A DNA stretch of 58,249 nucleotides, filler included, from Asterionella formosa (Eukaryota), in assembly GCA_002256025.1 (NCBI GenBank). It is 5 parts of 5 records of this genome, joined end to end, with 100 filler letters (N's around TTAATTAATTAA, not from the genome) between each part and the next. Parts side by side here need not be neighbours in the genome. Positions count along the whole stretch, not along the records: positions 11,697 to 23,292 come from NKIB01008335.1; 4 more parts are not named here. One strand, 5' to 3'. The notes under the pieces are model-generated. The model was not told where the DNA came from and made no database searches. It saw nothing but the letters and a program-made list of their open reading frames with translations. Positions 1,999-35,043 of the stretch are shown in pieces (the first letter of the stretch is position 1; every line of letters begins with the position of its first letter). The position numbers were made by a program, and so were the translations under genes.

Positions 1999-3429
1999 AT
2001 GTTTCACATCAGAGAAGACACAAGAAATCTGGTTGATTTAGTGAAGGAGGTGAGTCGAAGGAATATCGGTCTATAATTGGGGACATGCACAGTATTGTAG
2101 TGGTTACAGAACTAGCGAAAAAGTATTTCTTCTGATGATGGTCACTTACATTCACAGCGCAGGTTTGACGAAGCATGGCAACAAATCGATCAAGACCCAT
2201 CTTGTGTGTACGATACACATCATGGAAGTGGACGTACGGCACTCCATGAATTGTGCCGACTTACAACCTTTTCGACTGGTTTTGCCGTTGAGCATCCGGA
2301 GTATTCAGACGAGGAGAACGACGAGCGAAACGACCCAACATCAGAGATCAATCAGGACCAGTTCGATATGATCGATTTGGCTAGGCTCATTATCGAAACT
2401 TCGCACATACTTTTGCAGCAACCAGACACTTTGGCCCAGTACATCATTTATTCCTTCGAGCAATCAATCTTGATTTTCAAAGATATCAATGGGAATATAC
2501 CCTTGCACACACTATGTGAAAACTGGAATGTAAACTACGAAATGATGAATTTAATGTTCAGTTTATGTGACCCAAATCAGTCATCGAAGGACAAAAATAT
2601 TCCCACTGTTGGAGATCTTATTTCGCACAAGAACTACTTGCAGTGCACTCCGTTGCACCATATCTCGCAGTGTGTATGCTCCTTTTCTGCCTTGAAGCTC
2701 CTGTTGGCTCAATGTTCGACTGGAAAAGACTCTATTTTAAGAGTTCGTGATAATGACGGAGAGACACCGCTGCATTGGGCATTTAGCGCTGGCGTATCCA
2801 AACGGCGTCTTGAGCTATACTTGGCCAAATCAAAGGACCTTTTGTATGAAAAGAACAATGACAACGAAACACCTCTTTTTGCGATTGACATTGAGGACTT
2901 TCCTTCAGCTCGTGCCATGTGGCAAAGGGTTGTGCTCATTATGGGTGTCATCCTGGAACGTGAATATATTGCCGACCCGATGTTTGCTCTTGCTGAACTG
3001 AGCGATCTGATGCCACCGTCATTTATCAATCTGGGGCTTCGATTCTATCGGGAGGAATTGGGAGACGTTGATGACCATGGACGATCACCATTGCACGTGG
3101 CGGCAATGTGCCCATCAAGGGATTTGGGTGATGCCAATTTCTTGACACTCTTGGAACATTATCCTGAGGCAGCGAGACATCGATGTCGTAAACGTCGTTT
3201 GCCGATTCATGTGGCACTCGAAACGGCCAAGTCCTTGGATTGTGTTAAAGCCTTGCTGGCAGAGTATCCCGAAGGACTGTACGAAATAGATCCAGTTTCC
3301 CAGCTACCATGCTTCTTACTGGCTGGCGTGGTGTTGGAGGGATGCTTGCCCATGGTGGACAATCGTCTCAATTCTTGCTATACTATCCTGCGAGAAGATC
3401 CATCGGTCCTTCGCTCTAGTTGCTTATAG
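1999..3429 (+). CDS. Ankyrin-repeat protein, 2 exons (1999-2049, 2158-3429)
   Basis: Repeated ankyrin cores (GRTALHELC, GNIPLHTLC, CTPLHHI, GETPLHWA, GRSPLHVAA, RLPIHVAL). Intron 2050-2157 (GTGAGT...TTCACAG) joins ATG 1999 in frame to the long ORF. Confidence 0.8.
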
Positions 3430-3454
3430 ATTTTATTAAGGTATAAGTTACACA

Positions 3455-4249
3455 CTAAAAGGCCCGAATTTCCAAAATCTGCAAATCAATGTTACCTAGA
3501 GCAAAGTTCGGATTGAGATCTCCATCATACTCGAATTTGCTGTATGCCATTTGAACGCCCACAACATTTGCTTTGTCAAACACTTGACCTGGTACAGTTT
3601 TGGCAAAAATAGTGGGAATTTGCGAGTCAAACATGATCTTGACTACCGTTGTTTCAGGACCAGCGTTAAAGAGAGACAAAAGAGGATTTGCATTCTTTCC
3701 AATATCAGCACTTGTGGTCCAACAAATACCATTGAAATCAGTGCTGTCCCGAACCACAACCTTGAAGCGCTTTCCTTGACCGCCTTTGAACTTGAAGGTC
3801 AATCCTTTGCATTGCTCCATGTTGTATTTTAAAGCTGGTGTACTACGAATCCCAATAAATCCTCCATTGTTGGCATCAGTAACACTCCCCACCCATTTGC
3901 CACTGGCATTATCAAACTCGGAACTCGACACGCCACCCATGACAACATCATCGAGTGGGGCTAGAGTAAAGTCATTTTGACGATCCGAGGGCTCCCAAAT
4001 CACATCTCCGGGTAAAATTGTTTTGGTGGGTGTTGGGGTAAAAGGCAATTTGACGAACTTGCTGGACTGCTGAACAAATCGTCCAAGTTCCCATGGTTGT
4101 TTCGAGGACGTTGGGTCCTTTGGGTCGAATTGTGCTTCAATTTCAGGCACTGCTGGCCGTGAGTTCCAGCCAGACGATTTGCCCGCAAACGCATCGCTGC
4201 ATGTTAGTAGTGAGGAGAGAGAAAGTAAACTCAATAAGAGGGAGTTCAT
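3455..4249 (-). CDS. CIA30/NDUFAF1-like domain protein, probably plastid-targeted
   Basis: DDVVMGGVSSS...NNGGF motif and C-terminal SKFEYDG.LNP. N-terminal signal peptide ends in SDA|FA, resembling the ASAFAP cleavage site. Confidence 0.8.
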   Translation of the reverse strand: MNSLLLSLLSLSSLLTCSDAFAGKSSGWNSRPAVPEIEAQFDPKDPTSSKQPWELGRFVQQSSKFVKLPFTPTPTKTILPGDVIWEPSDRQNDFTLAPLDDVVMGGVSSSEFDNASGKWVGSVTDANNGGFIGIRSTPALKYNMEQCKGLTFKFKGGQGKRFKVVVRDSTDFNGICWTTSADIGKNANPLLSLFNAGPETTVVKIMFDSQIPTIFAKTVPGQVFDKANVVGVQMAYSKFEYDGDLNPNFALGNIDLQILEIRAF

Positions 4250-4374
4250 TCCTTGGCGTGTTTTGCTGGACGACGAGAGTTTTTAATGGCACTAAAGGAA
4301 AGATATATAATGTCGGGTTCTCATGTTCTCATTCCCATCGTGCGTACCTATGGTTGGAAAATATTTTCGAATCT

Positions 4375-4568
4375 AAAGGTTGCTGCATTTCAACCCTATG
4401 ATAGAGGTAGGGTTTAAAAACAATATTAAGTCAGAGTAGTCAAACATTGACTTCTTACGAGTAAAACACAAAGGTATATCGCTAAACGGAGCTTTCACTA
4501 ATATACACCCTTTCCATATGCTTAGATACAGTCATTGATCAAAGTAGGGGTATAGGTCAACTCTATAT
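4375..4568 (-). repeat. Dispersed repeat, inverted copy of ~44455-44650 (probable DNA transposon terminus)
   Basis: Blocks such as TTAAGTCAGAGTAGTCAAAC and CACCCTTTCCATATGCTTAGATAC occur as reverse complements at 44455-44650. Confidence 0.8.
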
Positions 4569-5862
4569 AACGTCAGGATACATTTGGTCAGAGAGAGGTT
4601 CCGGTTTTTAAAATCCAAGTGCCATAATACATTTTCAATTGGAGGCACCAATCAGCTTTGGAAGGAAGTTCAAGAGAGACTGGGCAATTTGATTTAAGGA
4701 AAACTGGAAATAGAAAAACGCGGATCTTGTGAGATTAATCAGACAGAAATCTAGGTTCTGGAACATGCAGTGGAAGCCACCCTTGCATCATCAGCTTTTT
4801 TAATCCTTTCAATGTTCTTGGCCATTGAAACTCAGGCTATAAATTCGATAGCAGCTTACATGACCATTTGGAAACAGTTCTAATAGTAGAATTGCTTTGT
4901 CATCACAGATGATTGTAGAGTAGATAACATTGTACTTAGCTACTCCATACTTCATCAAATCCTAATGATAGATTATTCCGCAAGACAAGCGCAGTATGTG
5001 CATATGCCCTTTTTGAATTAGTCAACACAAACCTGACCCAATGGTTTGTTTTCGGTTCTTGAATGATCAGTGGATCCTAATCGAATTTTCACACTTGTGT
5101 GAATTATTCTCATTCATTATGACAATACTTCTTCGAAAAAATCTCTACTCACACCACCCATAGACATTGATTCTTACATTATCTTTCAGCAAAAGCAACC
5201 CAAATTAATTTTTCCTTTGCTAATTGGCTATGGTAGATTTTAACCAACAACTCAGAACATAATGCTCGTCCTTGCTCATACAAGTCGATACAAATCATCA
5301 TATTTTTTCGATTTGAACTGGCAGCAGACTCAAACCGACTTTTGCTTTCCATTTGAATTATTATTCTACTATGTCATGATGATTGAATTACCTAGCAAAT
5401 CAAAACAGTGTATTTGAAAATTGGACTATGTGATGGAAATTCGAATCTTTTATTCAATGAAATCTCAGCATGCCCAAACCAAATTTGATTTCGATCTGAA
5501 TTGCTATTTTTCGTCATATTGTCATAGTACCTGGTACTCGGAGTACTACAGTATGCACCTACCGTATACCGTTTGGTCTGAACCGTCGAAAACCATGTGC
5601 GATTTCAAAAATGCATTTTATATATTACCGGTATTCAAACATCAAGTGAGTCATACAAATGGATTCTGGATTCTGGATTCTGTCTTTTGGTATACTGTTG
5701 TGTTGAATTCATCGCATGTACCTGGTACCAAGTTGTTTTCAGGGCAGTATACCGGTAGCTATGTACCGGCATGCCTATGTACGTCTGCCTTTGTCAACGT
5801 GTTCGTCCGGTAAAACTGAAATGCAACACATCATTTCGTTTTGCTGTGCGTTGGCTGTTCAT

Positions 5863-5903
5863 TACCAGTGATACCTGGTACCTGGTACCTGGTACCAGTA
5901 CCA
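5863..5903. repeat. TACCWGG/TACCAG micro-array
   Basis: taccagtgatacctggtacctggtacctggtaccagtacca. Confidence 0.85.
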
Positions 5904-6146
5904 GCTCGACATCATATATGTATGCGCTGGCTCGGTTGACTGCGAGGACGCCACATCAGAAAACTCACAAACAAACCTTTGTTACCCCCCCCTTCTTATG
6001 AATTCTCTCACATGATCAAATGATTTCACAGGTTCCTCGATGATACCATCCTGCCATTACAAATCATAAAAACTTGAGGTGACACTTTCGACTCAGTAAA
6101 GGGACACGTAGTAATTGTAGCTTCCTCAGCGAAACTAAGAGTCATC

Positions 6147-7337
6147 ATGAAACTAATCACGATCATCATAATTAGCATGCTTCTTTCCATCGCTTCTTTG
6201 GGGTCTACCAAAGCCTTGACGACACCACTCAACAAGAAATCTACTGCTCTTGATGTCTTGACGCAACTGAATCAATCCAACCGACTGGCCCCGTACGTTA
6301 CGCCCAATGGCGTGGCAGTAGTAACAGGCGGCAACAGTGGAATTGGTGCCGTCTGTGTGGAAACACTCGCCTTGACTGGGATGAAAGTAGTCTTATGTGC
6401 ACGCAACTTGGAGTCGGCCCAGAAGACAAAAGAAGGAATAGCAAAGCCTTTCCAGGAGTTAGTGGAGATTCAAGAATTGGACCTAGCGGACTTGAATTCG
6501 GTGAAACAGGCCTCTCAAGACATTTTGGACAAGTACGGACAAATTGATTTGCTATTGAACAATGCCGGCGTCATGGCTATTTCTACAAAGCAACTCACAA
6601 CTCAGGGTATTGAAATGCAGTTTGGTACCAATCACGTGGGTCATCATTTTCTAACTCGACTGCTAGTACCCAATATGAAACCAAATGGCAGGGTTGTGAC
6701 AGTGGCCTCCGTGGCGCATACGTTCGCTTCTGGTCCTACCATTGATTGGGAACCAAAAAAGTACTCTCCCTGGGGAGCCTANNNNNNNNNNNNNNNNNNN
6801 NNNNNNNNNNNNNNNNNNNNNNNNNNNNNNNNNNNNNNNNNNNNNNNNNNNNNNNNNNNNNNNNNNNNNNNNNNNNNNNNNNNNNNNNNNNNNNNNNNNN
6901 NNNNNNNNNNNNNNNNNNNNNNNNNNGGAGCCTACGGACAATCTAAATTGGCAAATATTTTGTTTGCCAAGCGACTTCAAGAACTAATGATAGAAAGTGG
7001 AAAAGCAGATTTGACATCTGTGTCATTGCATCCTGGTGTTATTGGAACATCCTTATGGCGCAACATGCCCTGGTTCGTCCAACCCTTCAAGGGACTCTTT
7101 GCTGACAAGACTATTGATCAAGGCGCGGCAACTAGTATGTTTTGTTGCCTTGCCGACAAGGTAACTCCAGGAGCATACTACTCGGATTGCCAAGTGAAAG
7201 AACCAAGTACAAACGCTCAAGATAAGATTCTTACTGCGAATCTCTGGGAGTATACCGAAAATTTGATTTTTCAAAAGGGTTTTGAAATGCCCAAAGCACT
7301 CATCACAGAAGGCTTATCGGCTGGAAAAAAATCATAA
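6147..7337 (+). CDS. Short-chain dehydrogenase/reductase (retinol dehydrogenase/WWOX-like) with N-terminal signal peptide
   Basis: TGGNSGIG, LDLADL, LLLNNAGVM, FGTNHVGHH, YGQSKLAN catalytic motif, LHPGVI. Contains an N-gap at 6782-6926. Confidence 0.9.
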   Translation: MKLITIIIISMLLSIASLGSTKALTTPLNKKSTALDVLTQLNQSNRLAPYVTPNGVAVVTGGNSGIGAVCVETLALTGMKVVLCARNLESAQKTKEGIAKPFQELVEIQELDLADLNSVKQASQDILDKYGQIDLLLNNAGVMAISTKQLTTQGIEMQFGTNHVGHHFLTRLLVPNMKPNGRVVTVASVAHTFASGPTIDWEPKKYSPWGAXXXXXXXXXXXXXXXXXXXXXXXXXXXXXXXXXXXXXXXXXXXXXXXXXGAYGQSKLANILFAKRLQELMIESGKADLTSVSLHPGVIGTSLWRNMPWFVQPFKGLFADKTIDQGAATSMFCCLADKVTPGAYYSDCQVKEPSTNAQDKILTANLWEYTENLIFQKGFEMPKALITEGLSAGKKS

Positions 7338-11596: not shown

Positions 11597-11696
11597 NNNN
11601 NNNNNNNNNNNNNNNNNNNNNNNNNNNNNNNNNNNNNNNNTTAATTAATTAANNNNNNNNNNNNNNNNNNNNNNNNNNNNNNNNNNNNNNNNNNNN
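11597..11696. other. Artificial contig-join linker
   Basis: N44-TTAATTAATTAA-N44, giving stops in all six frames. Confidence 0.97.
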
Positions 11697-12190
11697 AAGG
11701 AGGTAATTCCGAAGGTGACAAAGAAGAAGAATAGCGATTCTCCTCCAGCATCACCTTCACCAATCATGCAAAGTCACGTTCTAATGACACAGGCCAAACT
11801 ACCCTTTCTACCGAAAAACATGGATTTACTCAGAAAAACCCAGAAGAAACAGTCTCCTCTACTACGCACACACATTGGAACATCTCAGATCGATCAGGAA
11901 AATCATCCCATAGCAAAGACAGTGCCTTCTGCAGGCGAGCACACCGACGACAACAATCCAATTTCTCCAACCCAACCAATGGCACTCCGAGCTCTGCAAC
12001 CTGACCCCCAAAAGAAAAGGATCATAGCAGATACTCATACTACCGGCCACACAGAGAACAAAACAGTGCGTATTACTACACAATCAACAGATGAACAACA
12101 AGACTAGGACACAGATAGGAACCACATCACCTTCGAGAAAAACGACAACAAAAACAACATGATCAACTTTTGGACACAACTGACCACCAG

Positions 12191-14700
12191 TTAAAGAGAC
12201 ATGGACATTTTGTGAATACGCTCCTTTGTCAAGACCATTTTTTTGGAGTCGTGGATAAAAATTTCAAGGCAATTCGGAGGCAATTTAACTTCAATTAAAT
12301 GTTTTGTCCTGGACATTAGAATTTCCCGCGCAGAAAACCTCTCATCAGATGAGTCAATTATGTCGGTGGTGAGAGCTGTACTCAAGGCCATTCTTAAATC
12401 ATCGTTCCAAGTCACCATCCATCCTCCAATTAGCTACTACCGTAGGAAATATGTCCTTGATAACACAAACAAAGCAATGGCACTCTTCCAGTTTCAGTGG
12501 AAACAAAAGCAATTCACAGGTACAGGTATATACACAAAGGGGTTATGACAAAGGACAACTTCTTTGGTGTCCTAAAGGTTGAATAGGAAAGGATCAATTG
12601 AGAGATCAATATTGCGTCATCATAATTGATTCTACTGACTTAAATCCTAGATATTTCATCCAGTTCGAGGCAGTAGTGACACACAGCGTCCTTAGGCCAG
12701 CCACATTCCTGAAGAATTGTTGGCTCTGTACGAATAGGTTCCTCGCCTCCAGCATTGCATTCTTTGATCAAATCTGGAAAGCACTTCTTCAAGAATGTAA
12801 ACTTGAAAGCTAGCCTATTACAGTTCAATGTTAACAAATTGGCATTCCAGTACTCCTTTACGTGGATGCTGTCCATTCCAGGATTCATCGCAAAGAAAAG
12901 TGGGCCATATTCAGATGAATATTTGAGTGAATTTGGAAACTTGCGTTCTTGTCTGAAATCAGAAAACCTTCTTTTAATAGTTTTTCCTCCACTTTTCATT
13001 TTTAAGAAGAAATGTCTTTCCAATAGCGTGCACCATATTTATGGCCTCAATGCATCTTTTGCACCAGTCAAGCTGATGTTGTTCTCCTTGCATCTACAAT
13101 TCAAGTGAAAGTGCGCAAGACCTGTATAGTGCTTTGCTCTGCAAATATGAAATATATCTACTGAATTGTCCACTGTCTGTAATAATTGTACTTTCATCTC
13201 CTTGCTCACTGGAATCATAATCATGAACCAACTCCATAATTTTCCAGGTATTGTTGGCTCCATCACAAAGAATTTTTGACATTTTCTTTGCTGCTTCTTG
13301 CTTGTGCTGTCTCACCATCATGTGGATTGAATAGATTGTCAGCTTCAGATGAAAACCAACAATTATTATCCATGCAATGGACATCATGAACAAGCCTCGG
13401 TGCTGAATCATTACAAAGTGGTAACACTGACATTGGTGATTCAATGGATTTTGTCTGATCAGCAGCACACATGAAATTGACACTTATAAAACCTGATTCT
13501 TGATTTTTGTTACCATCACATTCCTGTTGTAGTTCCGAGTACAGCACTGAAAAATGACTTAGACCATCACCCATGTGACCAACTTTGTCTCCTATTGCTC
13601 CATGTAAGGACCATGCAAAGCTCCGATTCCAAAAAGTTGTAGATGACCTGATTTAGCACACACATTTTATTGATCACACGGACCCATTCCTTAATTGAAA
13701 ACTATTGGCATTGACAGAATAAATTTTCATCTGCCATGTAAAGAAATGTTGCCTTCAGATGGCTAAACCAGATATGTTGTGTTGCTGTCATGATATGATC
13801 GAAAGGAAAGATTCCTAATGGCTCATAGTATGCGAAAAACTGATTTTGGGGTTGCCAGAGAAGTCAACAAAGTAGTAGAATCTTGTTCTCAATTTTATAG
13901 TTGATTTGTCATTATTGCCAATTTGGGTATTGAATGCAAAAACAAATGATGTGGATGGCTGAATGCAATTTCTCCCAAATGTTTTATGGAAGGCTTTGAA
14001 AAAACTCTGAGTATATGTTCTTGGGTGACTGGCTCTGGTATTTGCAAGTCTGTGATGAACACTCTTGAACTGTTGTACATATCCACTACGTTTTGTATTG
14101 ATATCCACTGGCACTGCCAATTTCCTTTGCCGTCAAATCGGAATAAATCGCATATTTTGGCAAAGATGATGATGCAATCATAATCTTTCCATTCATCCTT
14201 CATTGACAACACTCTTGATTTATCAAATCTTTGGGTGTAAACATGGGGAAGTGGAGTGGCGCATCATCATCAAACACTTCAATCTCCATCCAGACTTTCT
14301 GTGGAAGGGTTCTGTCATTCTTTTCATTGTGTATCCTCATATGGAAAAGGATTCAAAAGAATAAGACACGCACATTTTATGGGTCTCCACCGGTTGCTTG
14401 TATCCAACATATGTGTTCTATTCTTCCATTCATGCCAATCATTTAAAATGCGTTCGCTGTTTTGCCGCTGTTACTGCTGGTTCGGATGTTGCATTTCAAA
14501 GAGCAAGTATATTTCTTTAGCTTATTGTAAGGAGTAATGAAGATTGTTCAGACTACGATGGTATTATTTTCAAATTGTTTAATACGCAGGTGTCATGGTC
14601 ATCTGATTCTGTTGATGAATCAGGATTTGACTGTCCCTTGCTCCTGGAAGTAGTGGCAGTAGCAAAATTGGACGAGATCAACATGAGTGTATCTTAAGTT
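12191..14700 (-). pseudogene. Degenerate long ORF of unknown (probably TE-derived) origin
   Basis: Chain of overlapping minus-strand ORF fragments in shifting frames. Part of it (14590-14670) recurs at 49556-49635. Confidence 0.35.
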
Positions 14701-15380
14701 CTTGAAAGGATTGAAGCTTTGGGAATCGGGCAGTCGTCCTGATCTAGTAGCATTTGAATCACTCGTCACTTGCGCTCCCATGGTGCAAGAATACTGCTTT
14801 GATTAGTGCTCCACAGTTGGCTGATGATTGAGATCCTGCCACAGTGCTGTGACAATATTGTACTATCAACATCATCATCATCTTCTTCTTCTTCCAATGG
14901 CTCAAAAAGGTTTCCACAGTAAATTCTGGTCCCAAGGTAAAACGTCGCTCTCGAATGTGTGGAAAGACTCCCATTCATAACAACGCCCTTCCAAATGGTC
15001 AAGGCGGCATCCAAGCTCACCACTGTGCCCAAGAGAATGAGCTTGGCTGAGGCTTGCTGGTGCTTTGATAGCAAAAAGGCCTCTCCTCTGGCTCGTCTTT
15101 ATCAATGCAAGTACACAAGTGAGGAAATGCATGGTAAGTGTAGTTGTCTTGTCCTGTCATTATTTCTCTTGTAAGCAAAGGAGCGGATAGAATAATACTC
15201 TGGAATCAGCTGAGCCGAATTTGACATCATGGTTGATTTCAAGCAATCATGAGGGAGCAAGCAAAATATTCAGAAATTAGGTCAACAATGTTGCTTGTTG
15301 GAAATGGTGCTGGGACAAGGGTTTCCTCGTCTGAATCATGGTGGAAGAGAGGGTCGTAAATTTGGAGGAGAACTTTCCTA

Positions 15381-15810
15381 TTACGAGTATTGCTCGAATC
15401 CTTCAAACATTTATTCGATGGTACCAGGTACCCTGGGAGATTTCGATACTGCACCAGTAAGTATAGAATTACTCCCTGGGGCAATACCGTACCACGCACG
15501 ACCATACCCAGTACCGGTTATCCACAAGGAGACCGTCCGAAAGGAAATACAACGTTTATTTGATTTTGGCGTGTTGGAGAAATGCTACGACTCGGCACAT
15601 GCCGCGCCTACATTCATTATAGCAAAAAAACAGGTACTAAACTACACTTTCGCCGGATAAATGCAAATATCAAAAACGAAAACCGTTTCCTATCCCAAAA
15701 ATATCCGAACTCATCCAAGATCTTGAAGGGTTTACATATGTCACGGCATTAGACCTTAACATGGGATACTATACAATTCGTTTAGATAAAGAGGCACAAA
15801 ACTTATGTGG
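15381..15810 (+). mobile_element. Ty3/gypsy reverse transcriptase fragment (frameshifted)
   Basis: LFDG/TLGDF...PYHARPYPVP...KEIQRL...GVLE...AAPTFIIAKK...KPFPIPKI...GFTYVTALDLNMGYYTIRL. Confidence 0.85.
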
Positions 15811-15897
15811 ATCAGACGTAGTGATCTTTTAGCACTGCTAACAGCAAAAACTTCCACAAAATCCGGCTGAGAATGGACTGATATCCATCAGGCCGTT

Positions 15898-16833
15898 GCT
15901 AACGGTGGACCAAAATGCAAACCAAACAGTGTTTTGGTTTCGGTAACCCTAAAAAACGATGCTAATGGGAGTGAAAAACCCAACGCAAACACATTACGTT
16001 TAGGGGATTCCGTGCCCATATCCCAATAAGTTACCCAAACGCATTACGTTTAGGTTTTTTTTCTCCCAAAGTTACCTAAACGTAGGATTCCATATTGTCT
16101 ACTTTGAATGTAGTCACTAGAAACCCAATAAACATAATCGCACAATCACTACATATAGGACGCATCATATGCCGGTACTGGTATATCATATCTATATACA
16201 ACAATTGCTATACGGTACCGGTACCAGGGTACCAGGTACCATACCACACTGGCGAGAACAACAACAACAACAACAAATCGACTTCGATTTATTATGTGGA
16301 ACACATAAATCAATCTTCTGTCACCACGACTTCATCTTCGTCGTCCTCTTCAACTGAGGCTGCTGGTGGCGGTATCACTCTGGCAACTGGGACTGGTGCA
16401 TCGCCACGTCCCTTTGTATCAATATATCTGGTAAGTAAGTAGTAGATGTTTTGTTGCAGGTAATGGCGCATGGCCAATTCGTTTGTACCAAGACACCATT
16501 GTTTTTGTTTGCGGCATTCAATTCTCTCTGGGTTGCTGAAACTGCTGTCAGTTGTATTTCATCATGAAGAAGTGTGGTCGGAGTATATGGTAAATTGCGG
16601 GGAAAACTAACTAATTCCCAAATAGGAATTATAATATTTCATTTATAAAAGTAGTCTTATAGAAATATTTAACTTTTTTTATAATGGTTTTGTCATCCTA
16701 CGTCACAGTAGATGGGTGGTTGACAGCATTTAGGATTTCCCAAAAACCGATAGCATCGTTTTTTCGTCAGTTGACCAAAACCAAAACCAATCCAAAAAAA
16801 GTTTTTGGGTTTTGGTTTGGGTCAACGGTTAGC
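15898..16833. mobile_element. Putative non-autonomous DNA element with degenerate ~70-90 bp terminal inverted repeats
   Basis: gctaacggtggacc...ttttggtttcggt...aaaaaacgatgcta at the left matches the reverse complement of tagcatcgtttttt...ttttggtttgggtcaacggttagc at the right. Internal CATTACGTTTAGG repeats. Confidence 0.5.
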
Positions 16834-17284
16834 TAAAATGACGCTCGAGGTCATTAATCTATGTTAAATACTAATGAATGTACCTGTTGTACTGACAAGT
16901 GTTTTATTTTTTAATAGCTCGTAATTTCTCAAAATGTCCTCATCAGTCAAGAAGATTCATTCTGTATTCAACATGAATTTATATGAAGATATGCAATATT
17001 GATAAATATCTTGCTTTAGGTGATATGTGTGACTGTTTTCAATCATTTACACAAAAGCCCTTTCAACACCATATTCTATTGCTCATATAGTGCACATATC
17101 ACGAAGGGCATATGTACAAACATATATTATGATGGACAAAAGTTCCGGCATCATGGTGATGACTGAAAATGAAGAAATTTAGAGATTTTTCATGTAGAAC
17201 TCAACGACATCAGTTGGTATAGAAATAATTTCGGGTACTAACTATGATGGACAAGAGTCAAGAATTACAAACACGAGCGACATC

Positions 17285-17457
17285 ATGATCTTCCATCCAT
17301 TTCCAGCCCATCCCTGGTCAGTTCCAGTGTCAATGACCGTGTATGGTCCCTCAGGAAATTTGGCAATGCGTAAAGTGTTATTTATGGGGCGTGGGCATGT
17401 GTCTGGATTGGGTGGGTGAGATTTCCCAGTTGCGCCGTACTTGGATGCTTTGAGCAT
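17285..17457 (-). CDS. pol: N-terminal fragment of copia pol (aspartic protease), truncated
   Basis: ATG 17457 reads MLKASK...YTVIDTGTDQGWAGNGWKIM, then runs into an unrelated repeat. Confidence 0.6.
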
Positions 17458-17645
17458 GTTTTGACGTTTGATACCTGGAATTGAAGCAACAACGGTTAGC
17501 AAAACAAGTAACACCTACAAAAACTTTCGTTAATTTGTTGCTATTTTATCGTGCTAAGTTGTTCCTAAATTCCTAAGTTGGTGTACCATATGGGTCTCTC
17601 TGATGCCTAATGTCTAAGAATGATGCTTCCAGCATGGGTAGGGTT

Positions 17646-19112
17646 TTAGCCTAGCCTATTGGCAGCTTGAGCCATCGAGTGATTACTGTCGTCGTCACTG
17701 TTTGTCTTCTCGGCCTTGCGCATGGGAGACTTAATCTTCTTAGCTCGGACACGGCGTGCATCAGTCTTTTCGACTTTCTTGCGTTTGTTTCCTTTGTAGG
17801 AACCATTTCCACCCCCTTTCTTTCCTAGGGTGTTCTTGTCCTTCTCAAGAAGTTCCCTAAAGAAGTTTAAGGACTCTTCGTCTCCCTGGAGTTGGTGAAA
17901 CTTCCGGGTCTTAAATGCCTTGAGGGTGTCTTCAGTTTGTCCTCCCTTTTCCATGCCTGCATTCCCCTTTTCCTTTGTATTCTTGGGGACCTCACGATGA
18001 GTTTCATTCTTGGGCTTGGAAGGAGTCTTCCTGCCCCTGTAGATCTCATCGTCGGCATCGGGTCCCACCATTCCCAAGAGTAGGTGGTAGATCCCATCAA
18101 GGGTTCCATCCTCCTTGTACCTCTCGAGACTCTCCTTGACATCCTTCGTGTTATACTTGGGGTCAGTCAACTTGGCAGTGTACAGCTTCCACCAATTGTA
18201 ACTGTCGGGGATTTCATCTGCTTTGAGTTTCTTTTCCGTAACAATTTTCATGTACTGTGTAAGTTTACACATACACTTGGTGAACGAATTATGAAACTCG
18301 CGTAGAGATCCTCCTTCAGTAAGGCGGAGATCGTCCAGCACCTTGTTGTACTTTTTAATCCAGTGAATGACCAGTTCTTCCCCTTCATAGTAACCACGGA
18401 GTTTGTGCCAAGCTTCATGTCCATCATGCTCCTCCTTGGTGGTGAGTGCCAATCTAGCAACCGCTGTAGTTGAGATGGAAGCAACCAGCATGCCCCAGAC
18501 AAGGCCGTTTTCGTCGGGGTTCTTGAGGGCATAGTTCCGGGATTTGATTACCTTGATTAGGTTCGAGGTTGCAAAATGCCCGATACTCTGCTGGCTCCAT
18601 TCCAGCCAATCTCCATGGTCGCCGGAAAATTGTCTGAGCTGCTGGACAGGTGTAGTGAAGACACGTTGGACTGATTTGTTCCCGGGCCCCCAGTGCGTGA
18701 GAGCCGCTGGGGTAGGCCAGTTGTGAGCTACATGGCTATAGCGAGCTGCCACCTCATGTTTCATCTCATCAAAGTCCTCCGGGGTCTCCTCGATGTCCAA
18801 GAGTTGCCACTTAGCTAGGACAGTAAGCCATTCGAGAGCAGGTTGGACTGAATTGATAAATGCTGGGCTTTGGATTTGGTGGACGTTAAGAACGTTGCGC
18901 AGGTTGTCCATCCCAGTCACTTTCATGGTGGTGAGGATTTTTCTCATTGCAACAGCATCAGTATGCCCGTCTTCATCGGGGTCATCTGCATGTCTAAAAT
19001 TGACTAGGAGAAGATCGAGGACCATCTGATAGAGCTCGGGAGATATGCTTTCGGCATTATCTTCCACGGCTACATTGGCGTGGACCGCATGGTTGCGAGA
19101 AGATAGAACCAT
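17646..19112 (-). CDS. gag: Copia Gag-like protein (488 aa, intact)
   Basis: FSGD..DWLEW and DGHEAWHKLRGYYEG capsid-like motifs. Basic Lys/Arg C-terminus without a clear CCHC knuckle. Confidence 0.7.
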   Translation of the reverse strand: MVLSSRNHAVHANVAVEDNAESISPELYQMVLDLLLVNFRHADDPDEDGHTDAVAMRKILTTMKVTGMDNLRNVLNVHQIQSPAFINSVQPALEWLTVLAKWQLLDIEETPEDFDEMKHEVAARYSHVAHNWPTPAALTHWGPGNKSVQRVFTTPVQQLRQFSGDHGDWLEWSQQSIGHFATSNLIKVIKSRNYALKNPDENGLVWGMLVASISTTAVARLALTTKEEHDGHEAWHKLRGYYEGEELVIHWIKKYNKVLDDLRLTEGGSLREFHNSFTKCMCKLTQYMKIVTEKKLKADEIPDSYNWWKLYTAKLTDPKYNTKDVKESLERYKEDGTLDGIYHLLLGMVGPDADDEIYRGRKTPSKPKNETHREVPKNTKEKGNAGMEKGGQTEDTLKAFKTRKFHQLQGDEESLNFFRELLEKDKNTLGKKGGGNGSYKGNKRKKVEKTDARRVRAKKIKSPMRKAEKTNSDDDSNHSMAQAANRLG

Positions 19113-19148
19113 ATTGGGTTAGTACTCACCTGTGTGTTCGAGATAACG

Positions 19149-19764
19149 TGTTAGCCAGCTTTATAAACACAGGTGAACTTTGGGTCTTTATTCCCTTATG
19201 TTTTGTTATTGCAATCCTCTTTATTAAATTTAGTAACCACTTATCCGGGTTACACTTGGATATCCCCCACCGGGTTCCTCCATAGTAACCCCCACTCATG
19301 GAGAGGATACAAGGTAATCCCCTTGGGAACTAACCGGGTTATAGGTTCGTTCCCTACACAGAGAGCCAGTCAGGATCTAGATTACTCTAGGCCTCTTCCA
19401 TAAGGGTCAGGTGGTCCATTGCTGCTGGAAAATAGCTTCCCGTACCCTCCGGGTGCGTTACTCCCGGTTGGTGCATGGATCCGTGCAGGTTTATTATGCT
19501 CCTGCAGCATCGCATTCGCCGTACGACTCCTGCTACCCACATCACAACGTACGTATAGATGCAGTCCCTCCATAATGGCGACGTACCCGATAGACCTAGA
19601 CCTGGAGGTAATCACATTCTATCACACAAAGGAGGATTTCTCCCCACGAGGTTTTGTGTGACCCCGTCCTTGATCAGGCAGTGAGTATATTACAGTAGTT
19701 GGAATCACTACTTCCATCGCTTGCCCGTAGGAGCTACACGCCAATGTACTATGTGTACCTGACA
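19149..19764 (-). repeat. 5' LTR (~616 bp)
   Basis: Minus strand starts TGTCAG and ends CTAACA (near-inverted termini), contains AATAAA, and is followed by a PBS-like CGTTATC. Confidence 0.65.
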
Positions 19765-19769
19765 CTTAC

Positions 19770-20592
19770 CTCTTGCAGTTGGATTTTGGTCAACCCAAGG
19801 TAATTTCACTGCGGAAGTGGACTAAAATACAGAGTGGCATCAGTTGCCGGACAACAAACACAAGGAGTCACAAAATACAATAAAGATGCATACAAACGAT
19901 GTGAAATGAAAATGTCCCAACTACAAGAATCCTTCTGGAAACAGAAGGAAAAGCGACAGAACGATGGTGCAGCCTACAAGGCGCAATTCAATCGGAAAAG
20001 GAAACGAAACGAAAAAATTCATGCTGCACGATTTGAAGCTGTCAAACAAGAAAGGTACGTCAAGAAAACTGGAAAGACTTACAGCTCTGGGGTGGCTTTA
20101 TTAGAAGACCAAGATCAGGAGGCCACAACAAAGAATGCAAATGCGCAATGCAAACATTGCGGCCGGAATGATCATCAGAGAAAAAGCATCACACTCTGTC
20201 CAGTCTTTCAAGGCAAAGCGAATCAAAGTACCGGTACTGGTATTACATGTGCATCCAGTGTGGCCGGCATAAGTTTGCAACGCCCTGCAGATCAGGCAAA
20301 TCAAATGGATGTAAGTAATTCATGTTGACCAATCATATTATAAATGTGGAAGCGGGCACTTACAATGGAGTTTTTGGACAGGAGATTTTAGGACTAAAGA
20401 TTCCGGCACACGACTACCATTCCGATGATGACGTTTCGGCACTTAATAATTCTGATTCCGATATTTTGGCGAAAGTAGAAAAGGCCGATTTTGTCGAGTT
20501 TTTGGACGACGATAGCTAAATGTTGGCTGGGTCTGACGGCGATTTAGATACAACCCTAGTACCTCGAGCTGGGGGTTCAAATGCAGCAACCT
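19770..20592 (+). mobile_element. 3' end of a Kolobok/Mutator-like DNA transposon (transposase C-terminus plus terminal region)
   Basis: Frameshifted P...HCGSGLKYRVASVAGQQTQG motif, basic coiled region and CKHCGRNDH...CP Zn knuckle. 20455-20592 matches the repeat at 44170-44650. Confidence 0.5.
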
Positions 20593-20859
20593 GAAGGATA
20601 CATATTGTCTACGATGAGAAAATATTGTCTACGATGAGAAAAGGCAGCATGCTATTGTTCTGACTGGTGTGATACTTCCATTGTAAGTGCGTGTACGGTG
20701 GTACAACACATAAACCGGTATACCTAAGATCTATGATAGGTGCAGGTTTTTGAGGGGAACCTTGGCACGTTGTAATACTTCTCTGCGAATCTGCATAAAA
20801 CAACATATTTTTAATGAATAATATTTTTTACTTTTTTGTATGTATATGCTTGACTTACA

Positions 20860-21485
20860 GGTAAATTTTAGCCCTTTCATCACTCCCCCTACCGGTAGTC
20901 CAATTGTATCTGTCCCACCATCGCAAACAATGTAATCCCAATCACAGACATGGTATTCAGAATCATTTCCATTATTTGGTAACCATGATAACCATGATTT
21001 ACTTGAAAGTCTTGAAAGAAGATCACCAGTTGCATAATTAAAAATTGCCAAGGCATAGAATTGCAACAAAGTATAGTCTCTGACACTTATAAATAGTTTC
21101 GACTGCTCCATCCATCATGTCAGTGCTTTTTGTTGTGAGGAGCCAGTAATTGAAAGTGCTGTTCCATTATCAAATGATTGTCCAGCCAAGAAATGAAACA
21201 ATGGTGATGATGTAGGTGATGGGTCTGCTGGCGGTTTGAGCTTCCATATGACAATGGCAATGATGGCACCTAGTCTAAGATGCCAATCACCACAAATGTT
21301 GCCAAGACTTGCTCCCCTCCCTTGATGCCGAAAAATAGGCTTTTTCAATTGTTTCTTGGTCAAAAGTAGAGGCACTGGCAATTTCAGAATCATCGACAAG
21401 AACACACAGCATTGAATTGTAATAGTGTTGCAGATTCCAGCTGGTGGCCATGTTCATCGTGAACCTTGTTGGTGCTAGCAGGAGC
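20860..21485 (-). pseudogene. Fragment of a type-II membrane LRR gene (N-terminus/TM/LRRNT), paralog of 47052-47600
   Basis: Nucleotide match to the 47 kb gene. VDDSEI, IIAIVIW, DNGTA...SSQQ.A, DYTLLQFYALA.FNYATGD, with frameshifts. Confidence 0.8.
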
Positions 21486-21614
21486 ACTGATCATTGCAGA
21501 AAAATTAAAGCAACTTGTTTGATGTTACAGAGAATCTGGTCCTAGCTACTACTGGTAGCGCTACTATTAGCAACGTGTCAGGCTACATAGTACAGTAGGA
21601 GTGAGAGTGGAAAT

Positions 21615-21700
21615 TGCGGAGACAAAACCGATACATACAGGCATTTCCTCTTATACCTGCGGAGACAAAACCGATACATACAGGCATTTCCTCTTATACC
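21615..21700. repeat. Exact 43-bp tandem duplication
   Basis: TGCGGAGACAAAACCGATACATACAGGCATTTCCTCTTATACC x2. Confidence 0.95.
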
Positions 21701-22702
21701 GGTATTCTAGACGCTACACTCTACACTATATACTCTTTCCGGTAGTATTTCTGTTATTACATCAAATCTGATGAAATCCATATCTTAGCTGAATTTGCTA
21801 CCGGTATACTTTTACCGTAGGTAAAATTTGTTGGATCGACGTGACGTGACGTGATTGATGTTATGTAGAGATGCATCTGATGCTAACGGTACCTGGTAGT
21901 ACAGTACGATACCCAGTAACAGTACCAGTGCCAGGGGACCACAGTTTGAACCAGCTTATTACAAAGCCTCAAGCATGTGTATTGAGGTGGGTAGGCGCAG
22001 GTACGAAACTACACTCTACCAGGACCACTATTGGAACCAGCATACCGGTATACAGAATCGTGCATGCCAATTGAGACGGGCAAGCGCAGGTTCGAACACT
22101 TGTCTTTGCATTGTTTGAACAAAATTCCGTTCCCTCATGTTTTTCCACCTGGAATCTTTTTTTAACGTAGAAAATATACCAATGACGTAGATGATGACGT
22201 GTTTTCAGCACCTTTTATCAGATGTAAAAATGATACCAATATGCATACGGTACCCTGGTACTATGTGAAGATATTAGCAATCATACTGGCTGAGGAACCC
22301 CCAATGTGGAGCGACTTTTAATGTCCACTTCCACCTTCTATAGATTATTCCATACCGGTACCGATCGAGACCTTTCCAATATACCTGATACCGCAACGAC
22401 AGGTATTGTACTGATGTATCTGAATAGCTCGTACCACCTAATTAATTGCTCAAGCTGTCCTCATCAGTCATGCAACTATTTTACACAAGATTCATCCTTT
22501 ATTCTACTATAATACATACATATACAAATACATTCATTCATACATACATACATAGATGAGGGACAAAAGTTCCGGTATGACTGAATGAATTTTTGGACCT
22601 TGCTGTTATGTAGAATTGAACGACATGAGATGGAAGCGAAACTATTATCCCGTAAAATAAGGGCAGGACTCGAGATTAAACAACGAGAACAAGAAATCAA
22701 AC

Positions 22703-23292
22703 ATGGCGCATATTGCACCTTCACTCCATGCTTCATACGCCCGTACCCACCATGAAGCTCCAATTGTGAATGAGCATGGCGTACAAGCAGAGTACGTAAG
22801 GAATGGACTCTGTCCTTATCATCCAGACATTCAGCTTCGCAAAAAGAATGCGTTTGGAGTTTGGAAGACTGTACGAGACAGCTGCCCAAAATGCGATCGT
22901 CTGAATAGTACCCAAGGGGCTACTGCTCCAGTGACTCCAATGCCTCAGCAGTCTCCTTCTTTGCCAGCAACCCAAATTCCAACCACTTCAATTCAGTCTC
23001 CAATTGCTGCAATTCTTTCAAAGATGAGATTGAATGAACGGAATGCTGACATTCAAGAAGAAGGTCTCTTTGAACTTCAGAACTTGGCTGCGAATGATGA
23101 AAACCACAGGGTGACGATTGCTGCAGCAGGAGGTATCACTACGATTCTGTCTGCAATGAAGACTCATTCCTCCAATGCTACTGTGCAAGAAAAAGGTTGT
23201 GGAGCACTTTGTAGCTTGGCTTTGAATAATGACAAGAACAAGGTGACAATTGCTGAAGCAGGAGGTATCATTACGATTCTGTCTGCAATGAA
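22703..23292 (+). CDS. CPxHP...CPxC-domain plus armadillo-repeat protein, truncated at contig end
   Basis: GLCPYHPDIQLRKK...WKTVRDSCPKC, P/S/T linker, then 42-aa ARM repeats (N..N.VTIA.AGGI.TILSAM). Confidence 0.8.
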
Positions 23293-23392
23293 NNNNNNNN
23301 NNNNNNNNNNNNNNNNNNNNNNNNNNNNNNNNNNNNTTAATTAATTAANNNNNNNNNNNNNNNNNNNNNNNNNNNNNNNNNNNNNNNNNNNN
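23293..23392. other. Artificial contig-join linker
   Basis: N44-TTAATTAATTAA-N44. Confidence 0.97.
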
Positions 23393-25134
23393 CTGAGGCT
23401 GAAGCGAAGGCCCAACGTCACCGTGGCATGATCAACATCATGGTATCTTGCGCTTTCACAAGTCTTGTTGCCATTGTAGCTGTTGTACTTGCAGTTGTGC
23501 TTACTCAGAACAACAAACCAAATAATCCAACATTAGTTCCAACATCATATGTTCCGGACAATCAAATGTTGGCTCCCACATTTGTAATTCCCTCTACACC
23601 ATTGTATTTTTTTTGTCTAATAACTCGTTTGATAATGGGGTTGCACTTTTGACCAATGGCACGCCACAACAGCGGGCAATGGTCTGGTTGGAAAGTGAGC
23701 AAGGTACTGGAGAAATCATGTATACTGCTGGGTTGCTTCAAATCTATGCCTTGGTGACTCTTTATTATGCAACCTCTGGAGACCAGTGGCCCAACCAAGG
23801 TTTTAATGATCAAGTCAGTGGCAGATCAATGTGGCTATTGAGTATCGACAATTATTGTGATTGGTTTGGATTGAAATGCGATGCAAATAGAAGCCAGGTA
23901 ATTTCAATGAATTTGACTAACAATACCTTAATGGGGTTCATTCCCCCGGAAATTGGTCGTTTGTCAAGTTTAGGTAAGTTAACATACCCGGCAAGAGATA
24001 AAAACAAATCATTGAAGATTGCTTCACTAATGAAATGAGTCACATCATTTTACGACAAAGAATCTTTTGATTTTTCATCAAATGCCATAGATGAATCACT
24101 ACCAAGCGAACTGGGTCTATTGACAAGTGTTACAGATTTATATGTACAGCAGAATCTGCTTACTGGCCCAATTCCAAAGGAGCTTGGACAGTTGACCAAC
24201 ATTACAACATTGTCATTGTATGAAAACAAGTTGACAGGAACACTTCCACCAGAAATTGGCCAATGGGCTAACCTTGTTGTTAAATTGTTTCTACAAAATA
24301 ATATATTTCAGGTACCACTTCCGACAGAGATTGGATTGTTGACAAAACTATCAGCATTGTATATGAACTATAATGACTTCACTGGTCCACTTCCTTCAGA
24401 AATTGGATATTTGACAAATCTCATTGATTTTAAAGCAAATTTCAACAGTCTCTTTGGTACACTTCCTACAGAGATTGGATACCTGAGAGGTCTAACATCA
24501 TTGTATGTACAGGAAAACCAGTTGACTGGTCCGCTTCAACCAGAAATTGGCTTTTTGAAAAATATCATTGATTTTAGAGCAAATTCCAACCGTCTCTTTG
24601 GCACAGTTCCTACAGAGATTGGATTCTTGACAGGTCTAACAGTATTAGTTCTTTGGGAAAACCAGTTGACTGGTGCACTTCCGACAGAAATTGGCAATTT
24701 GAAAAATATGGCATTATTTGCTGCAAGCACAAACCATTTCAATGGAACACTTCCTTCAGAAATTGGATTCTTGACAAGTCTAACATTATTGCATCTATTT
24801 AATAATCAGTTGACTGGTGCACTTCCAACGGAAATTGGCAATTTGACAAGTCTCAATAATTTTCAGATTCATTCCAATATGTTTACTGGTGAAATTCCCA
24901 CAGAAATTGGTCTCATGTCTTCATTGAGTAAGTTTTGTTTATCTGAAACTGACATTTCTTGACCATTTGTTCTAAAATTTCACTTTCTTGACAGCCACAT
25001 TAAATTTTGGAAAGAACAATTTTACAGGGCCAGTTCCAACAGAAGCATGTAATATTGCAACAATAATTTTTTGCCCACCGCTGATTTGCAACTGTGGTAG
25101 CTACTGTTCCGCAATTAAGCTCGATTGTGATTAA
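23393..25134 (+). CDS. Type-II membrane LRR receptor-like protein, 5'-truncated; 1-nt frameshift in a T8 run at 23607-23614
   Basis: TM helix, PQQRAMVWL...LQIYALVTLYYATSG.W...CDWFG..C cap, 24-aa LPTEIG LRRs. Introns 23974-24060 and 24928-24994 splice in frame. Cys-rich C-terminal cap. Confidence 0.8.
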
Positions 25135-26345: not shown

Positions 26346-29300
26346 CTCTCCCTCTCAACCAAAAAAGAGTCGGGGTCACCAACCCATAAGAAGCAGCCGA
26401 GCGGCCTGAAATTTGATAGTGCAAAGACCTTTAGTGAACTGATCGGCAAGCTGGTGTTTGGTATCAATAGGTTTGATATGGATATGAAGGTTGACAATTT
26501 TCGTGCGAAACCAGTGATATGGAATGCCAATGTGTTTGCTTGGTGAGAGGAGATAGTTGTGCCATGCGTGCAAATTTTAGACAATCATGGTTATCCTCAT
26601 AGAGAATTGATTGATCGATGGCATGATAAGGACCAGTACCCTCTGCAACATCTGTGAACGATTTGGAATACGCATGATATGCAATACTTGGTTGAATTTC
26701 GAATACAACGGGCATAAATTCTTTGAGTGTTTCACGAATTGGAATGAGGTTGCGCATCGCCTGAGAAAGAGCCACATATTCGGCCTCCATGGTACTCAAG
26801 GCAATCTGAGTCTGCATCTTGGATACCCGGAGGAGAGGGCTCTCTTTGTACAGCACAACATAGCCAGTGCGGGACTTGACTGAAATGGGATCTTGATTGT
26901 TTTCAACAGCAAAAAGATCCGCAAAATCGGCATCCACATGATAACAATCCACCCTTAGTGTGTTTGTTGGCTTCAACAGAAGCCACATGGTTTTTGTTTT
27001 CTGCAAATAGCGAAGGAAGCGGCGAACGGCAATAGCGTGAGAATGATGTGGGGCATGGGATAATCTAGCGGCTTGATGAATGGCATAAGCAATATCTGGG
27101 CGGGTATTTGCAGTCAGGTACATCAGCATGCCAATGATTGAATTGTATTGCCAGGTTTCAGTGAACGGATCTCCATCGAAATCATTTTCTGAGGGAGTAG
27201 TAGTCGATGGTGTATCCACTCCATTACAATCAGACATGCCAGTTGCTGCAAGGACTTTGTCAATTAGTCCGGTTTGAGTGAGATTATATTCCTGCAGTCC
27301 AGTTTTTTATATTTGAATTCCAAGAAAGGCACCAACTTCTCCTTCATTTCTAAGTGCAAAAGTGTGACGCTGTTCCTTTTCATGGACGCCAAGGCTTTGG
27401 ATTTTTGCTTCAAGAACAAGTGAGTCCGCTCCAGCAAATATGGTGTCATCGATATAGCAGACACAAATAATTCCTTGTTTCATGAACAAGCATGGATCAA
27501 TTTGAGATTGAGTGTACCCATGTTCCAAAAGTCCCTCCCGAAGTTTCTCAAAGAAGGTGCAAGGAGCTTGACAAAGTCCATATAGACTTTTTAGCAGTCG
27601 CAACACTTTATTGGTGCCGGACTTGGGTCCAAAATGCGAGGGTATTCCAGATACACTTATTCTTTGAGATTGGCTTGAGCAAATGCGTTGGTGTAGTTGA
27701 CTTGATGGGTTGACCAGCCCTCAGTGAGAACACTTAACAATAGCAAGCGAATGGTAGACAAAAGTACAACAGGTGCATAGGTCTCGAAGAAGTCAATGCC
27801 CTCCTTTTGGAGATCTCCTTGTGCACAAACGCGTGCTTGGAAGCGATAGCTAAGGTGTGCCACCTGGGAACCGTTTCAGTTTGAATACCCATGTTCCTTT
27901 TAATACATTGAGGTTTGCAGTTCTTGGCACAGATTCCCAGGTATGTTGAAGAATGAGTGTTGCAATCTCTATTTGCATGGCTTTAATGTACTCTTCTGAA
28001 TTTTCGCCATGGATAGCCTGATGAAACGTTGGAGAATCAGGGTCATCTTTGTGGCGTGTTTTGGATGCATACACTCGAGGGTCAGTAATGTTGTGAACAA
28101 CTGTCAAAACAGGTAAGTAATTCTGCTGAATATGCCAGTTGTTTCTTGTAGAAATTGTCATGCTTGGTTTGATCCATCATGGTCAACTATACTTCGTCAA
28201 TATATTTTGTACAATTATACTGACCCTTATTTGTCCTTTCAGATCGTCGAACTGCTGGCACTGGTGGTGAAGAGTGGGGTGAACTTGCAATAGAATCTGG
28301 TATGTGTTTTGTGTGTGCACTATCAGTGCTGAGTGGAATAGGTGCTTTAGGAGGAGGTATTGGAGGAGATGCTCCCTCTAAAATGCCGATATTTTGTTCT
28401 GCTGGTGTTGATGGTCCTTCAGGTGGTAAAGCTGCCGTAATGAAGTGTGTGGGGGAAAATGTGGTAGGAATCCGCTGTTGTCGATGAAGCTCCCTCTGTT
28501 TTTGTGCTTGTTCATCTGAAGTGAGCCAGTCGTCTTGAAGATGCATTGGTGTTTCAGTGTTTGAATCGTTCGGTATGTAGATTTTATTTTCCAGACACAA
28601 ACCGTCCCAGTATTCAGTAGGGTCTTCATCTTTTCCAATTGACGCCACCGTGGAGAAACTGTCGTCAAAAACCACATGATATTGAGTGGTAATACTCCCA
28701 GTTAGCAAATTAAGGACCAAGGGGACTTCACTGGAGTGAATGGAGCTCAATCCAAGGAACACACCTTGTCGTGATTGTGGTTGCTATCTAGGCAATTTCT
28801 TCCCAGATTGAAGAGTTGGGTCAAGAACATACACTGGAAATCCCCAAGTGTGAAGATCTCGCAGTCAATGTCTGGGAATTGTGCTTCCAGTGTAGAGATC
28901 AGCTGGGCAAAAGGAATGATTATTTGGTGTATGATTGTAAAGGTGCACAGCGTAAGTAACTGCTATAGGCCAAAGTGTGCTGTCGATCCCTCCTTTTCAA
29001 TGACTGGAAGCATGGAGAATCATTGAGCGTGCCATGTCAGATACTGTTCTAATAGCCCGTTCTGCTACACCATTTTGATGGTGTGCATTTGTTCCACAGT
29101 ATTGAAGATGCTGAGTATGTTCTCGAATGTGTTGAACAAAAGAGTTTGCCTTGAATGCGCCACTGTCAGTGAGGTAGGATTGTATAATGAAACAATTGTC
29201 CATTGCCTGTTGCTCATAGTTTTGTTTTGCTCTGATGGTTTCAACAGCAGAGAATCCCAATTGGTGCTCCACCTGAATGTATCTGGTGCCATGATCAGCA

Positions 29301-34943: not shown

Positions 34944-35043
34944 NNNNNNNNNNNNNNNNNNNNNNNNNNNNNNNNNNNNNNNNNNNNTTAATTAATTAAN
35001 NNNNNNNNNNNNNNNNNNNNNNNNNNNNNNNNNNNNNNNNNNN
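34944..35043. other. Artificial contig-join linker
   Basis: N44-TTAATTAATTAA-N44. Confidence 0.97.

Follow-up and report, generated by a model that had tools for sequence, protein, structure and literature searches.

Separate gag and pol cistrons in a clade of diatom Ty1/copia retrotransposons, with candidate splice signals on either side of gag

Nearly all long terminal repeat (LTR) retrotransposons and orthoretroviruses make Pol as a Gag-Pol fusion, which sets the ratio of Gag to Pol and also packages Pol. For plant copia elements with non-overlapping gag and pol, bypass or internal entry was reportedly suggested by Gao et al. in 2003, in their work on gag/pol recoding. In Drosophila copia, Arabidopsis EVD and barley BARE1, the Gag:Pol ratio is set by the host major spliceosome together with a canonical U1 site; according to the passages on these elements, their introns exceed those of the host in length, and unspliced RNA dominates, lying far above the spliced form in EVD (PMC5580714). 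Our search of the literature for spliced pol mRNAs in LTR retrotransposons found only the foamy-virus cases. In diatoms, Maumus et al. (2009) sought an open reading frame (ORF1) upstream of the polyprotein ORF2 of the CoDi elements, and in the sections of their article that concern these elements no discussion was met of how split ORFs might be expressed (PMC2806351); Additional file 1 of that article, which gives the ORFs of each CoDi family, may already record the split. The CoDi passages of Llorens et al. (2009) do not address a split between gag and pol (PMC2774666). We report here on an element carried on the minus strand of a 58,249-nucleotide (nt) stretch of Asterionella formosa DNA (filler included; assembly GCA_002256025.1), the whole of which is called the window below. 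The element lies in the part derived from NKIB01008335.1 (positions 11,697 to 23,292) and belongs to a Ty1/copia clade that keeps gag and pol as separate cistrons, and signals resembling a splice donor and a splice acceptor stand on either side of its gag.

A scan of metagenome contigs based on gag yielded six loci of this family, with 94-97% nucleotide identity. One of them, L001, is 6806 nt long and its first 123 nt recur at its end; it is evidently a collapsed unit of 6683 nt, comprising the internal region and one LTR. L001-L003 and L005 are all collapsed assemblies in the order pol-LTR-gag, and no record with both LTRs was found among the available sequences; the window has the 5' LTR only. 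In L001, gag occupies positions 306-1772 and the pol frame positions 1878-6062, with 1366 amino acids (aa) when counted from the first ATG at 1962, and L005 is laid out likewise. The spacer between the two genes measures 189 nt in L001 and 188 nt in the window copy. In the L001 spacer, five stop codons (one TAA and four TAG) interrupt the gag frame ahead of the opening of the pol frame, and stops occur in both remaining frames. Judged by these reading frames, gag and pol are separate, non-overlapping cistrons in the intact copies, in agreement with the original prediction, which had placed two separate ORFs about 190 nt apart without overlap. Readthrough and simple frameshifting were rejected as routes to Pol because all three frames of the spacer are closed, and leaky scanning because 39 ATG triplets intervene between the start codons of gag and pol. 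Indels of 1 nt in the spacers of two of six aligned copies (the window copy and L003) alter the relation between the gag and pol frames, which is weak evidence, as either copy may be defective. The leader, too, carries 2-7 upstream ATGs.

The same separation recurs among relatives of the element. An all-against-all HMMER comparison gave 94 gag relatives at E<=1e-3, all of them at most 585 aa long and none fused to pol; many are full-length proteins of 430-490 aa with 22-35% identity. The possibility of a continuous or frameshifted gag-pol ORF, raised along with the original prediction, is borne out neither by these relatives nor by L001 and L005, which have two cistrons each. A search of longer proteins with the gag query found no gag-pol fusion, which is weak evidence. 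The pol query gave 68 relatives, 21 of which, at 43-100% identity, are 1035-1394 aa each; given these lengths, none of the 21 is fused to gag, and over the range of 42-64% identity pol stands alone. Another 13 relatives, all at 41% identity or less, are 1724-2354 aa long, and the fused forms, of 1724-1956 aa, are met only in this identity range. Among such long proteins, P0123 has a gag-like N-terminus (E=1e-4) and carries its protease motif at residue 497, and the gag of the element gave no significant match to P0147 or P0132 (best E 1.7 and 0.27). A fused form thus occurs among more distantly related diatom copia elements, and the split looks derived. The named pol relatives come from Nitzschia and Skeletonema, at 28-39% identity.

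Pol itself has a recognizable beginning. Of the 68 pol relatives, 21 have the protease motif no further in than residue 80, and 13 of these 21 begin with MKV. Relatives of the MKV type have the catalytic Asp at residue 36-47; in the element's own family pol begins with MLKA and the Asp is residue 43. When 20 pol N-termini were aligned, a Met column was common to them, including two proteins called with longer N-termini. Since the initiator and the residues that follow it are conserved, we argue that translation of Pol begins at this AUG and not as part of a Gag fusion. Taken across these gag and pol alignments, the split architecture is real and extends over the clade.

The element is classed as Ty1/copia-type on the basis of an RVT_2 match in the pol of its full-length relative and of Retrotran_gag_2 matches in its gag family. 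The RVT_2 match in L001 (E=4.8e-17; 62.8 bits against a cutoff of 31.6) spans pol residues 902-1101, a region missing from the window copy. Upstream of this reverse transcriptase (RT) domain there are integrase-core matches, all weak and below cutoff: rva_4 at residues 350-438 of L001 pol (E=0.095) and rve at residues 293-372 of the relative P0103 (E=0.0022). With the protease motif DTGTD close to the pol N-terminus, the domains fall in the order protease-integrase-RT-RNase H (PR-IN-RT-RH), which is the copia order as far as those sub-cutoff integrase matches can be read. The window gag, which is 95% identical to P0001, matches Retrotran_gag_2 at E=0.0098, below the Pfam cutoff; 11 of 26 aligned members of the gag family match it, the best at E=1.5e-9. 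A comparison of the gag profile with solved structures found no capsid and gave only chance-level p300 matches (E of at least 0.018).

Splice-like signals bracket gag in the window copy as originally described. A consensus donor, CAG/GTGAGT (the slash marks the cut), lies at 19124-19132 on the minus strand, with the exon ending at 19130 and the intron starting at 19129, and its cut is 17 nt before the gag ATG at 19112. Downstream of gag, a candidate branch point CTAAC (17499-17495) is followed by a pyrimidine tract and by the candidate acceptor CAG (17477-17475), whose end likewise falls 17 nt before the pol ATG at 17457. The branch A is 21 nt from the AG, 13 of 18 nucleotides are pyrimidines, and no AG intervenes. 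Donors were scored as matches out of nine to MAG/GTRAGT, and acceptors by a composite of YAG, at least 12 of 18 pyrimidines, and CTRAY 15-40 nt upstream with no AG between. On the sense strand of L001 (6.8 kb), with 307 GT dinucleotides, a score of 8/9 or better is reached by the leader donor alone, at 9/9; just 3 of 493 AG dinucleotides qualify as composite acceptors, one of them being the site before the pol AUG. In the rest of the window, counting both strands and including host introns (~111.5 kb), there are two 9/9 donors and 23 composite acceptors. From these background rates, chance would supply ~0.008 donors per 460-nt leader and ~0.04 acceptors per 189-nt spacer, and the splice signals exceed that expectation. 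The donor sits between a sequence resembling a primer-binding site (PBS) and the gag ATG; in retroviruses, too, the major donors lie downstream of the PBS. The host has GT-AG introns whose donors read GTAAGT and whose branch points read CTGAC, and the window contains more AGGTRAGT than expected (9 against 3.15).

These signals would permit a scheme in which the full-length RNA doubles as the genome and the message for gag, while a minor fraction is spliced from the leader donor (window 19130) to the acceptor (17475) 17 nt before the pol AUG. Such splicing would remove an intron of 1655 nt containing all of gag, so that the distance between the 5' end and the pol AUG in the spliced RNA would equal that between the 5' end and the gag AUG in the unspliced one. 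Pol would then have to enter particles unfused to Gag, as in spumaviruses. We regard a minor, spliced, gag-less mRNA as the best mechanism on offer for the production of Pol, albeit an unproven one whose chance of being correct we place somewhat below even. The wider proposition, that the whole diatom Ty1/copia clade no longer fuses Gag to Pol but translates Pol from a subgenomic mRNA rid of gag by splicing, is tentative to the same degree.

The element is present, nearly identical in sequence, in 18 metatranscriptome runs (X1-X18) from 18 studies of freshwater, lakes and estuaries, at 0.35-0.41 of sampled words, which suggests a widespread host and a highly expressed element; the libraries may contain DNA. 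Contigs from four of the runs (X1, X5, X12 and X3) were placed on L001, in sets of 51, 17, 6 and 8 (82 in all), and they span the full length of the element, with word depths of 16-182. In X1 the gag contig has a depth of 86.5 and the pol contigs 100-117, and in the other runs the two are equal; such depths cannot rank the parts of the element.

A number of observations weigh against splicing. The original prediction of a spliced, gag-less pol mRNA went without support in these assemblies: no contig in the four runs joins L001 position 288 to 1945, a result with the limit that a minor RNA could escape contigs, since these lose rare variants, and that RNA libraries may include DNA. Among the listed contigs, the donor is crossed unspliced in three of the four runs and the acceptor in all four. 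As these unspliced crossings occur at depths of 16-182, a spliced form with a large share should have assembled, and the recovery from X12 of a contig of only 57 nt, representing a 177-nt deletion variant of gag, implies that abundant or short junction contigs do survive assembly. The only joints seen were the closure of the circle and a 65-nt skip inside the LTR. Among seven DNA sequences, moreover, there was no gag-less processed copy with a joined junction. The single definable host intron measures 73 nt, as against 1655 nt for the one proposed, and the acceptor criteria were chosen after the site had been seen. Conservation between copies adds little: the donor is kept in 6/6 and the acceptor in 6/6 of the copies covering them, and in L006 a 4-nt insertion just upstream of the donor recreates the CAG, so that the comparison of splice signals among copies came out as anticipated, but it carries little weight because the copies are so nearly identical. 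The RNA contigs exclude a spliced pol mRNA as a major species; against a minor one they are weak evidence.

Internal initiation of the LINE-1 kind is the main rival. Ribosomes would in that case reach pol on the unspliced RNA, as they do ORF2 of LINE-1, through internal entry, shunting or some unconventional form of termination-reinitiation, and the splice-like signals would be unused or would form a U1 site protecting the long transcript. Unspliced RNA is indeed all that was seen in the four runs (4/4), a low output of Pol would suit the Gag:Pol ratio, and with two to seven upstream ATGs in the leader, translation must be unusual anyway. We know of no LTR element in which reinitiation takes place after a 488-codon ORF and across 189 nt, which counts against this explanation, and it leaves unaccounted for a sole consensus donor and a good acceptor, each 17 nt before an AUG. 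The fold of the spacer is unremarkable (z = -1.70, with 12 of 200 shuffles folding equally well), and comparison of the element with Rfam gave no match at E<=0.1. An arrangement of two ORFs that do not overlap, with a stop-rich stretch between them, does match the LINE-1 layout as given in the relevant passages of PMC4091050, and the U1 site of EVD is credited, in the passages on that element, with repressing premature termination as well (PMC5580714). All told, we consider bicistronic translation unlikely, though a serious contender.

Two further routes to Pol would dispense with the long intron. A subgenomic pol mRNA might start from an internal promoter in the 3' end of gag or in the spacer, which is A/T-rich and contains, ~85 nt before the pol AUG, a ATAAAATA stretch picked out by eye as a putative promoter sequence. 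There is a precedent in Tca2, a copia element with a minor promoter at its gag-pol junction, but the Pol of Tca2 itself comes from LTR-driven RNA, according to the passages on its expression (PMC2194720). No contig starts or loose ends cluster in the spacer, with the reservation that the start of a contig does not reveal the start of an RNA; the two loose ends found there, L001 1834 and 1866, were read as diverged copies of the spacer. A scan for bacterial promoters was empty, a bacterial model being no test of this element, and we find an internal promoter distinctly improbable. Alternatively, a weak donor located among the final gag codons might be spliced to the pol acceptor, removing ~215-225 nt and giving an in-frame Gag-Pol fusion. 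Two such sites, ACA/GTGACG at L001 1720 and ACA/GTAATC at 1732, are in frame with the acceptor; the intron would be nearer in length to the 73-nt host intron, a weak donor would yield little fusion product, and the packaging of Pol would be solved. The donor scores are poor, however, and the last 270 nt contain, by chance alone, five in-frame GT dinucleotides. No contig in the four runs joins the 3' end of gag to L001 1945, and the conserved initiator Met and MKV at the start of pol and the perfect donor in the leader would have no explanation. We therefore give this short intron hardly any credence.

The window copy is, by its alignment to relatives, a dead 5' fragment of ~2.5 kb, consisting of the LTR, the PBS-like site, leader, gag, spacer and the start of pol. 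Similarity to full-length relatives (BLAST, minus strand) runs from 19763 to 17285 and then ceases; this, the presence of pol residues 1-58 only and the lack of pol further on are the grounds for calling it dead. The 5' LTR is placed at 19369-19763 (395 nt, matching L001 6134-6528), with 6-nt inverted termini GTCAGG...CCTGAC and a 3' boundary that is inferred. These limits follow from the inverted termini and from contigs with divergent flanks: similarity in the window begins at 19763, which equals L001 6134, three distinct upstream flanks are seen in RNA contigs that end at L001 6134/6137, and beyond 6528 two contigs diverge. A purine-rich run resembling a polypurine tract precedes the LTR in the family. 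Directly after the LTR, at 19344-19368, comes the putative PBS, which starts with TGG and is the same in the 5/5 copies that cover it; the window contains no tRNA genes. The leader (19113-19343) is the shortest form among the copies of a family with a variable leader; 209-345 nt present in other copies are missing at a single point, ~19232. The intact gag ORF, of copia type, encodes 488 aa at 17646-19112, with its TAA at 17648-17646, and the non-coding spacer (17458-17645) has lost 1 nt relative to its relatives.

The original prediction of a copia element with a protease ORF was right about the Ty1/copia type and less so about the ORF, which in this fragment holds only 58 codons of pol. These occupy 17285-17457, begin with their own ATG, include the protease motif DTGTD and are 93% identical to pol residues 1-58 of L001 (tblastn). 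The frame from 17457 runs to 72 codons, the last of them in unrelated sequence (17242-17284) beyond a breakpoint at 17284/17285, where it continues open to a stop. BLAST detected no further similarity to family DNA in the window past 17285, and 0/88 other ORFs of at least 50 aa in the same piece matched Pfam at E<=0.01, so this piece contains no pol beyond the fragment. No LTR pair was found within the window, and self-BLAST revealed no second copy of the element. Just past the break, frame-shifted ORFs at 15253-15832 on the plus strand, with no Pfam match at E<=0.01, bear some resemblance in translation to the start of a Ty3/gypsy-type RT.

Several features of the leader and flank may be recorded here. 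A TATAAAG lies within the leader at 19165-19159 on the minus strand (L001 253-259), 35 nt before the end of the donor exon, and an RNA starting from it would be without the PBS and without a usable donor. Just 3' of it there is an upstream ATG in four copies and an ACG in the window copy and L006. The L001 leader also has a (TTCG)n-type run at 159-204. Adjoining the first base of the LTR, AGGTAAGT at 19764-19771 (minus strand) is a consensus donor of the host type, and from its position the element may have inserted a few bases inside a host intron.

Other members of the family show variants of their own. A gag with an in-frame deletion of 59 aa (429 aa in all) occurs in L003 at 5010-6305, in proteins P0002-P0006 and in several contigs; the same deletion appears in the X12 RNA contig at L001 536-576, at about half the local depth. 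In P0007 and P0042, two diverged copies with 70-86% identity, LTR-derived sequence runs in frame into the beginning of gag, the PBS and most of the leader having been deleted. The 65-nt skip within the LTR (L001 6428-6494) is confined to one X1 contig with a depth of 5.7. The family had no match among the IMG/VR viral contigs.

Elsewhere, the window consists of five pieces of ~11.6 kb joined by N44-TTAATTAATTAA-N44 spacers at 11597-11696, 23293-23392, 34944-35043 and 46602-46701, and neighbouring pieces need not adjoin in the genome; the first piece has an extra gap of 145 N at 6782-6926. Another copia pol remnant, split between two frames, lies at 33881-34899 on the minus strand and corresponds to residues 773-1134 of the family's pol at 41-45% identity (E=1.3e-80); the end of the third piece truncates it, so that its gag/pol junction falls outside the window. 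A more distant RT/RNase H remnant of copia type at 26424-27618 (minus strand) has 24% identity to pol residues 954-1288 (E=2e-13). A host gene with guanylate-cyclase and cyclic-nucleotide phosphodiesterase domains extends over 34988-38321 on the minus strand, where it is cut by a piece boundary, and is split by a 73-nt GT-AG intron at 36499-36427. Leucine-rich-repeat ORFs at 47648-48690 and 24311-24867, both on the plus strand, are built of 72-nt tandem units with ~77-82% identity, and the two loci are related to each other. A cyclase-phosphodiesterase fusion and leucine-rich-repeat proteins would suit a diatom host.

Given its stop-filled spacer and its conserved pol AUG, the clade must set the Gag:Pol ratio and package Pol in some way other than by fusion. 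Were splicing that way, this would be the first LTR retrotransposon known to us with a pol-only spliced mRNA, it would amount to an independent invention of the spumavirus strategy, and a packaging of Pol that does not depend on fusion would be implied. The family is apparently transcribed abundantly in freshwater and estuarine metatranscriptomes.

Among known systems, foamy viruses resemble the element in having a pol with its own conserved AUG, and the sequence of the element contains a leader donor and an acceptor before pol; their spliced pol mRNA has been demonstrated, whereas none was seen in the four runs for the element. The foamy-virus pol frame overlaps that of gag, with the acceptor located within gag, whereas in the element 189 non-coding nt lie between the two genes; the element is of the Ty1/copia type, lacks env and probably has IN ahead of RT. 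LINE-1 differs in being a non-LTR element without splice signals bracketing ORF1, and its inter-ORF spacer is shorter. What it shares, according to the passages on its two ORFs, is a pair of non-overlapping ORFs on one RNA, the second much less expressed (PMC4091050). Tca2 of Candida albicans, also of Ty1/copia type, is similar in that it does not connect gag to pol through classical recoding and has a minor promoter at the junction; it differs in that a single UGA separates gag from pol in one frame, where the element has five in-frame stops and a 189-nt spacer (PMC2194720, in the passages on that junction). The CoDi elements, as characterized in the sections devoted to them, share the diatom host group and the Ty1/copia type, and have the PR-IN-RT-RH order that is probable for the element (PMC2806351). 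Copia, EVD and BARE1 belong to the same superfamily as the element but have a single gag-pol ORF, from which an intron takes out protease or pol sequence to leave a gag-only RNA. In the element, the proposed intron would take out gag and leave a pol-only RNA, in mirror image to copia and EVD, where splicing leaves gag alone.

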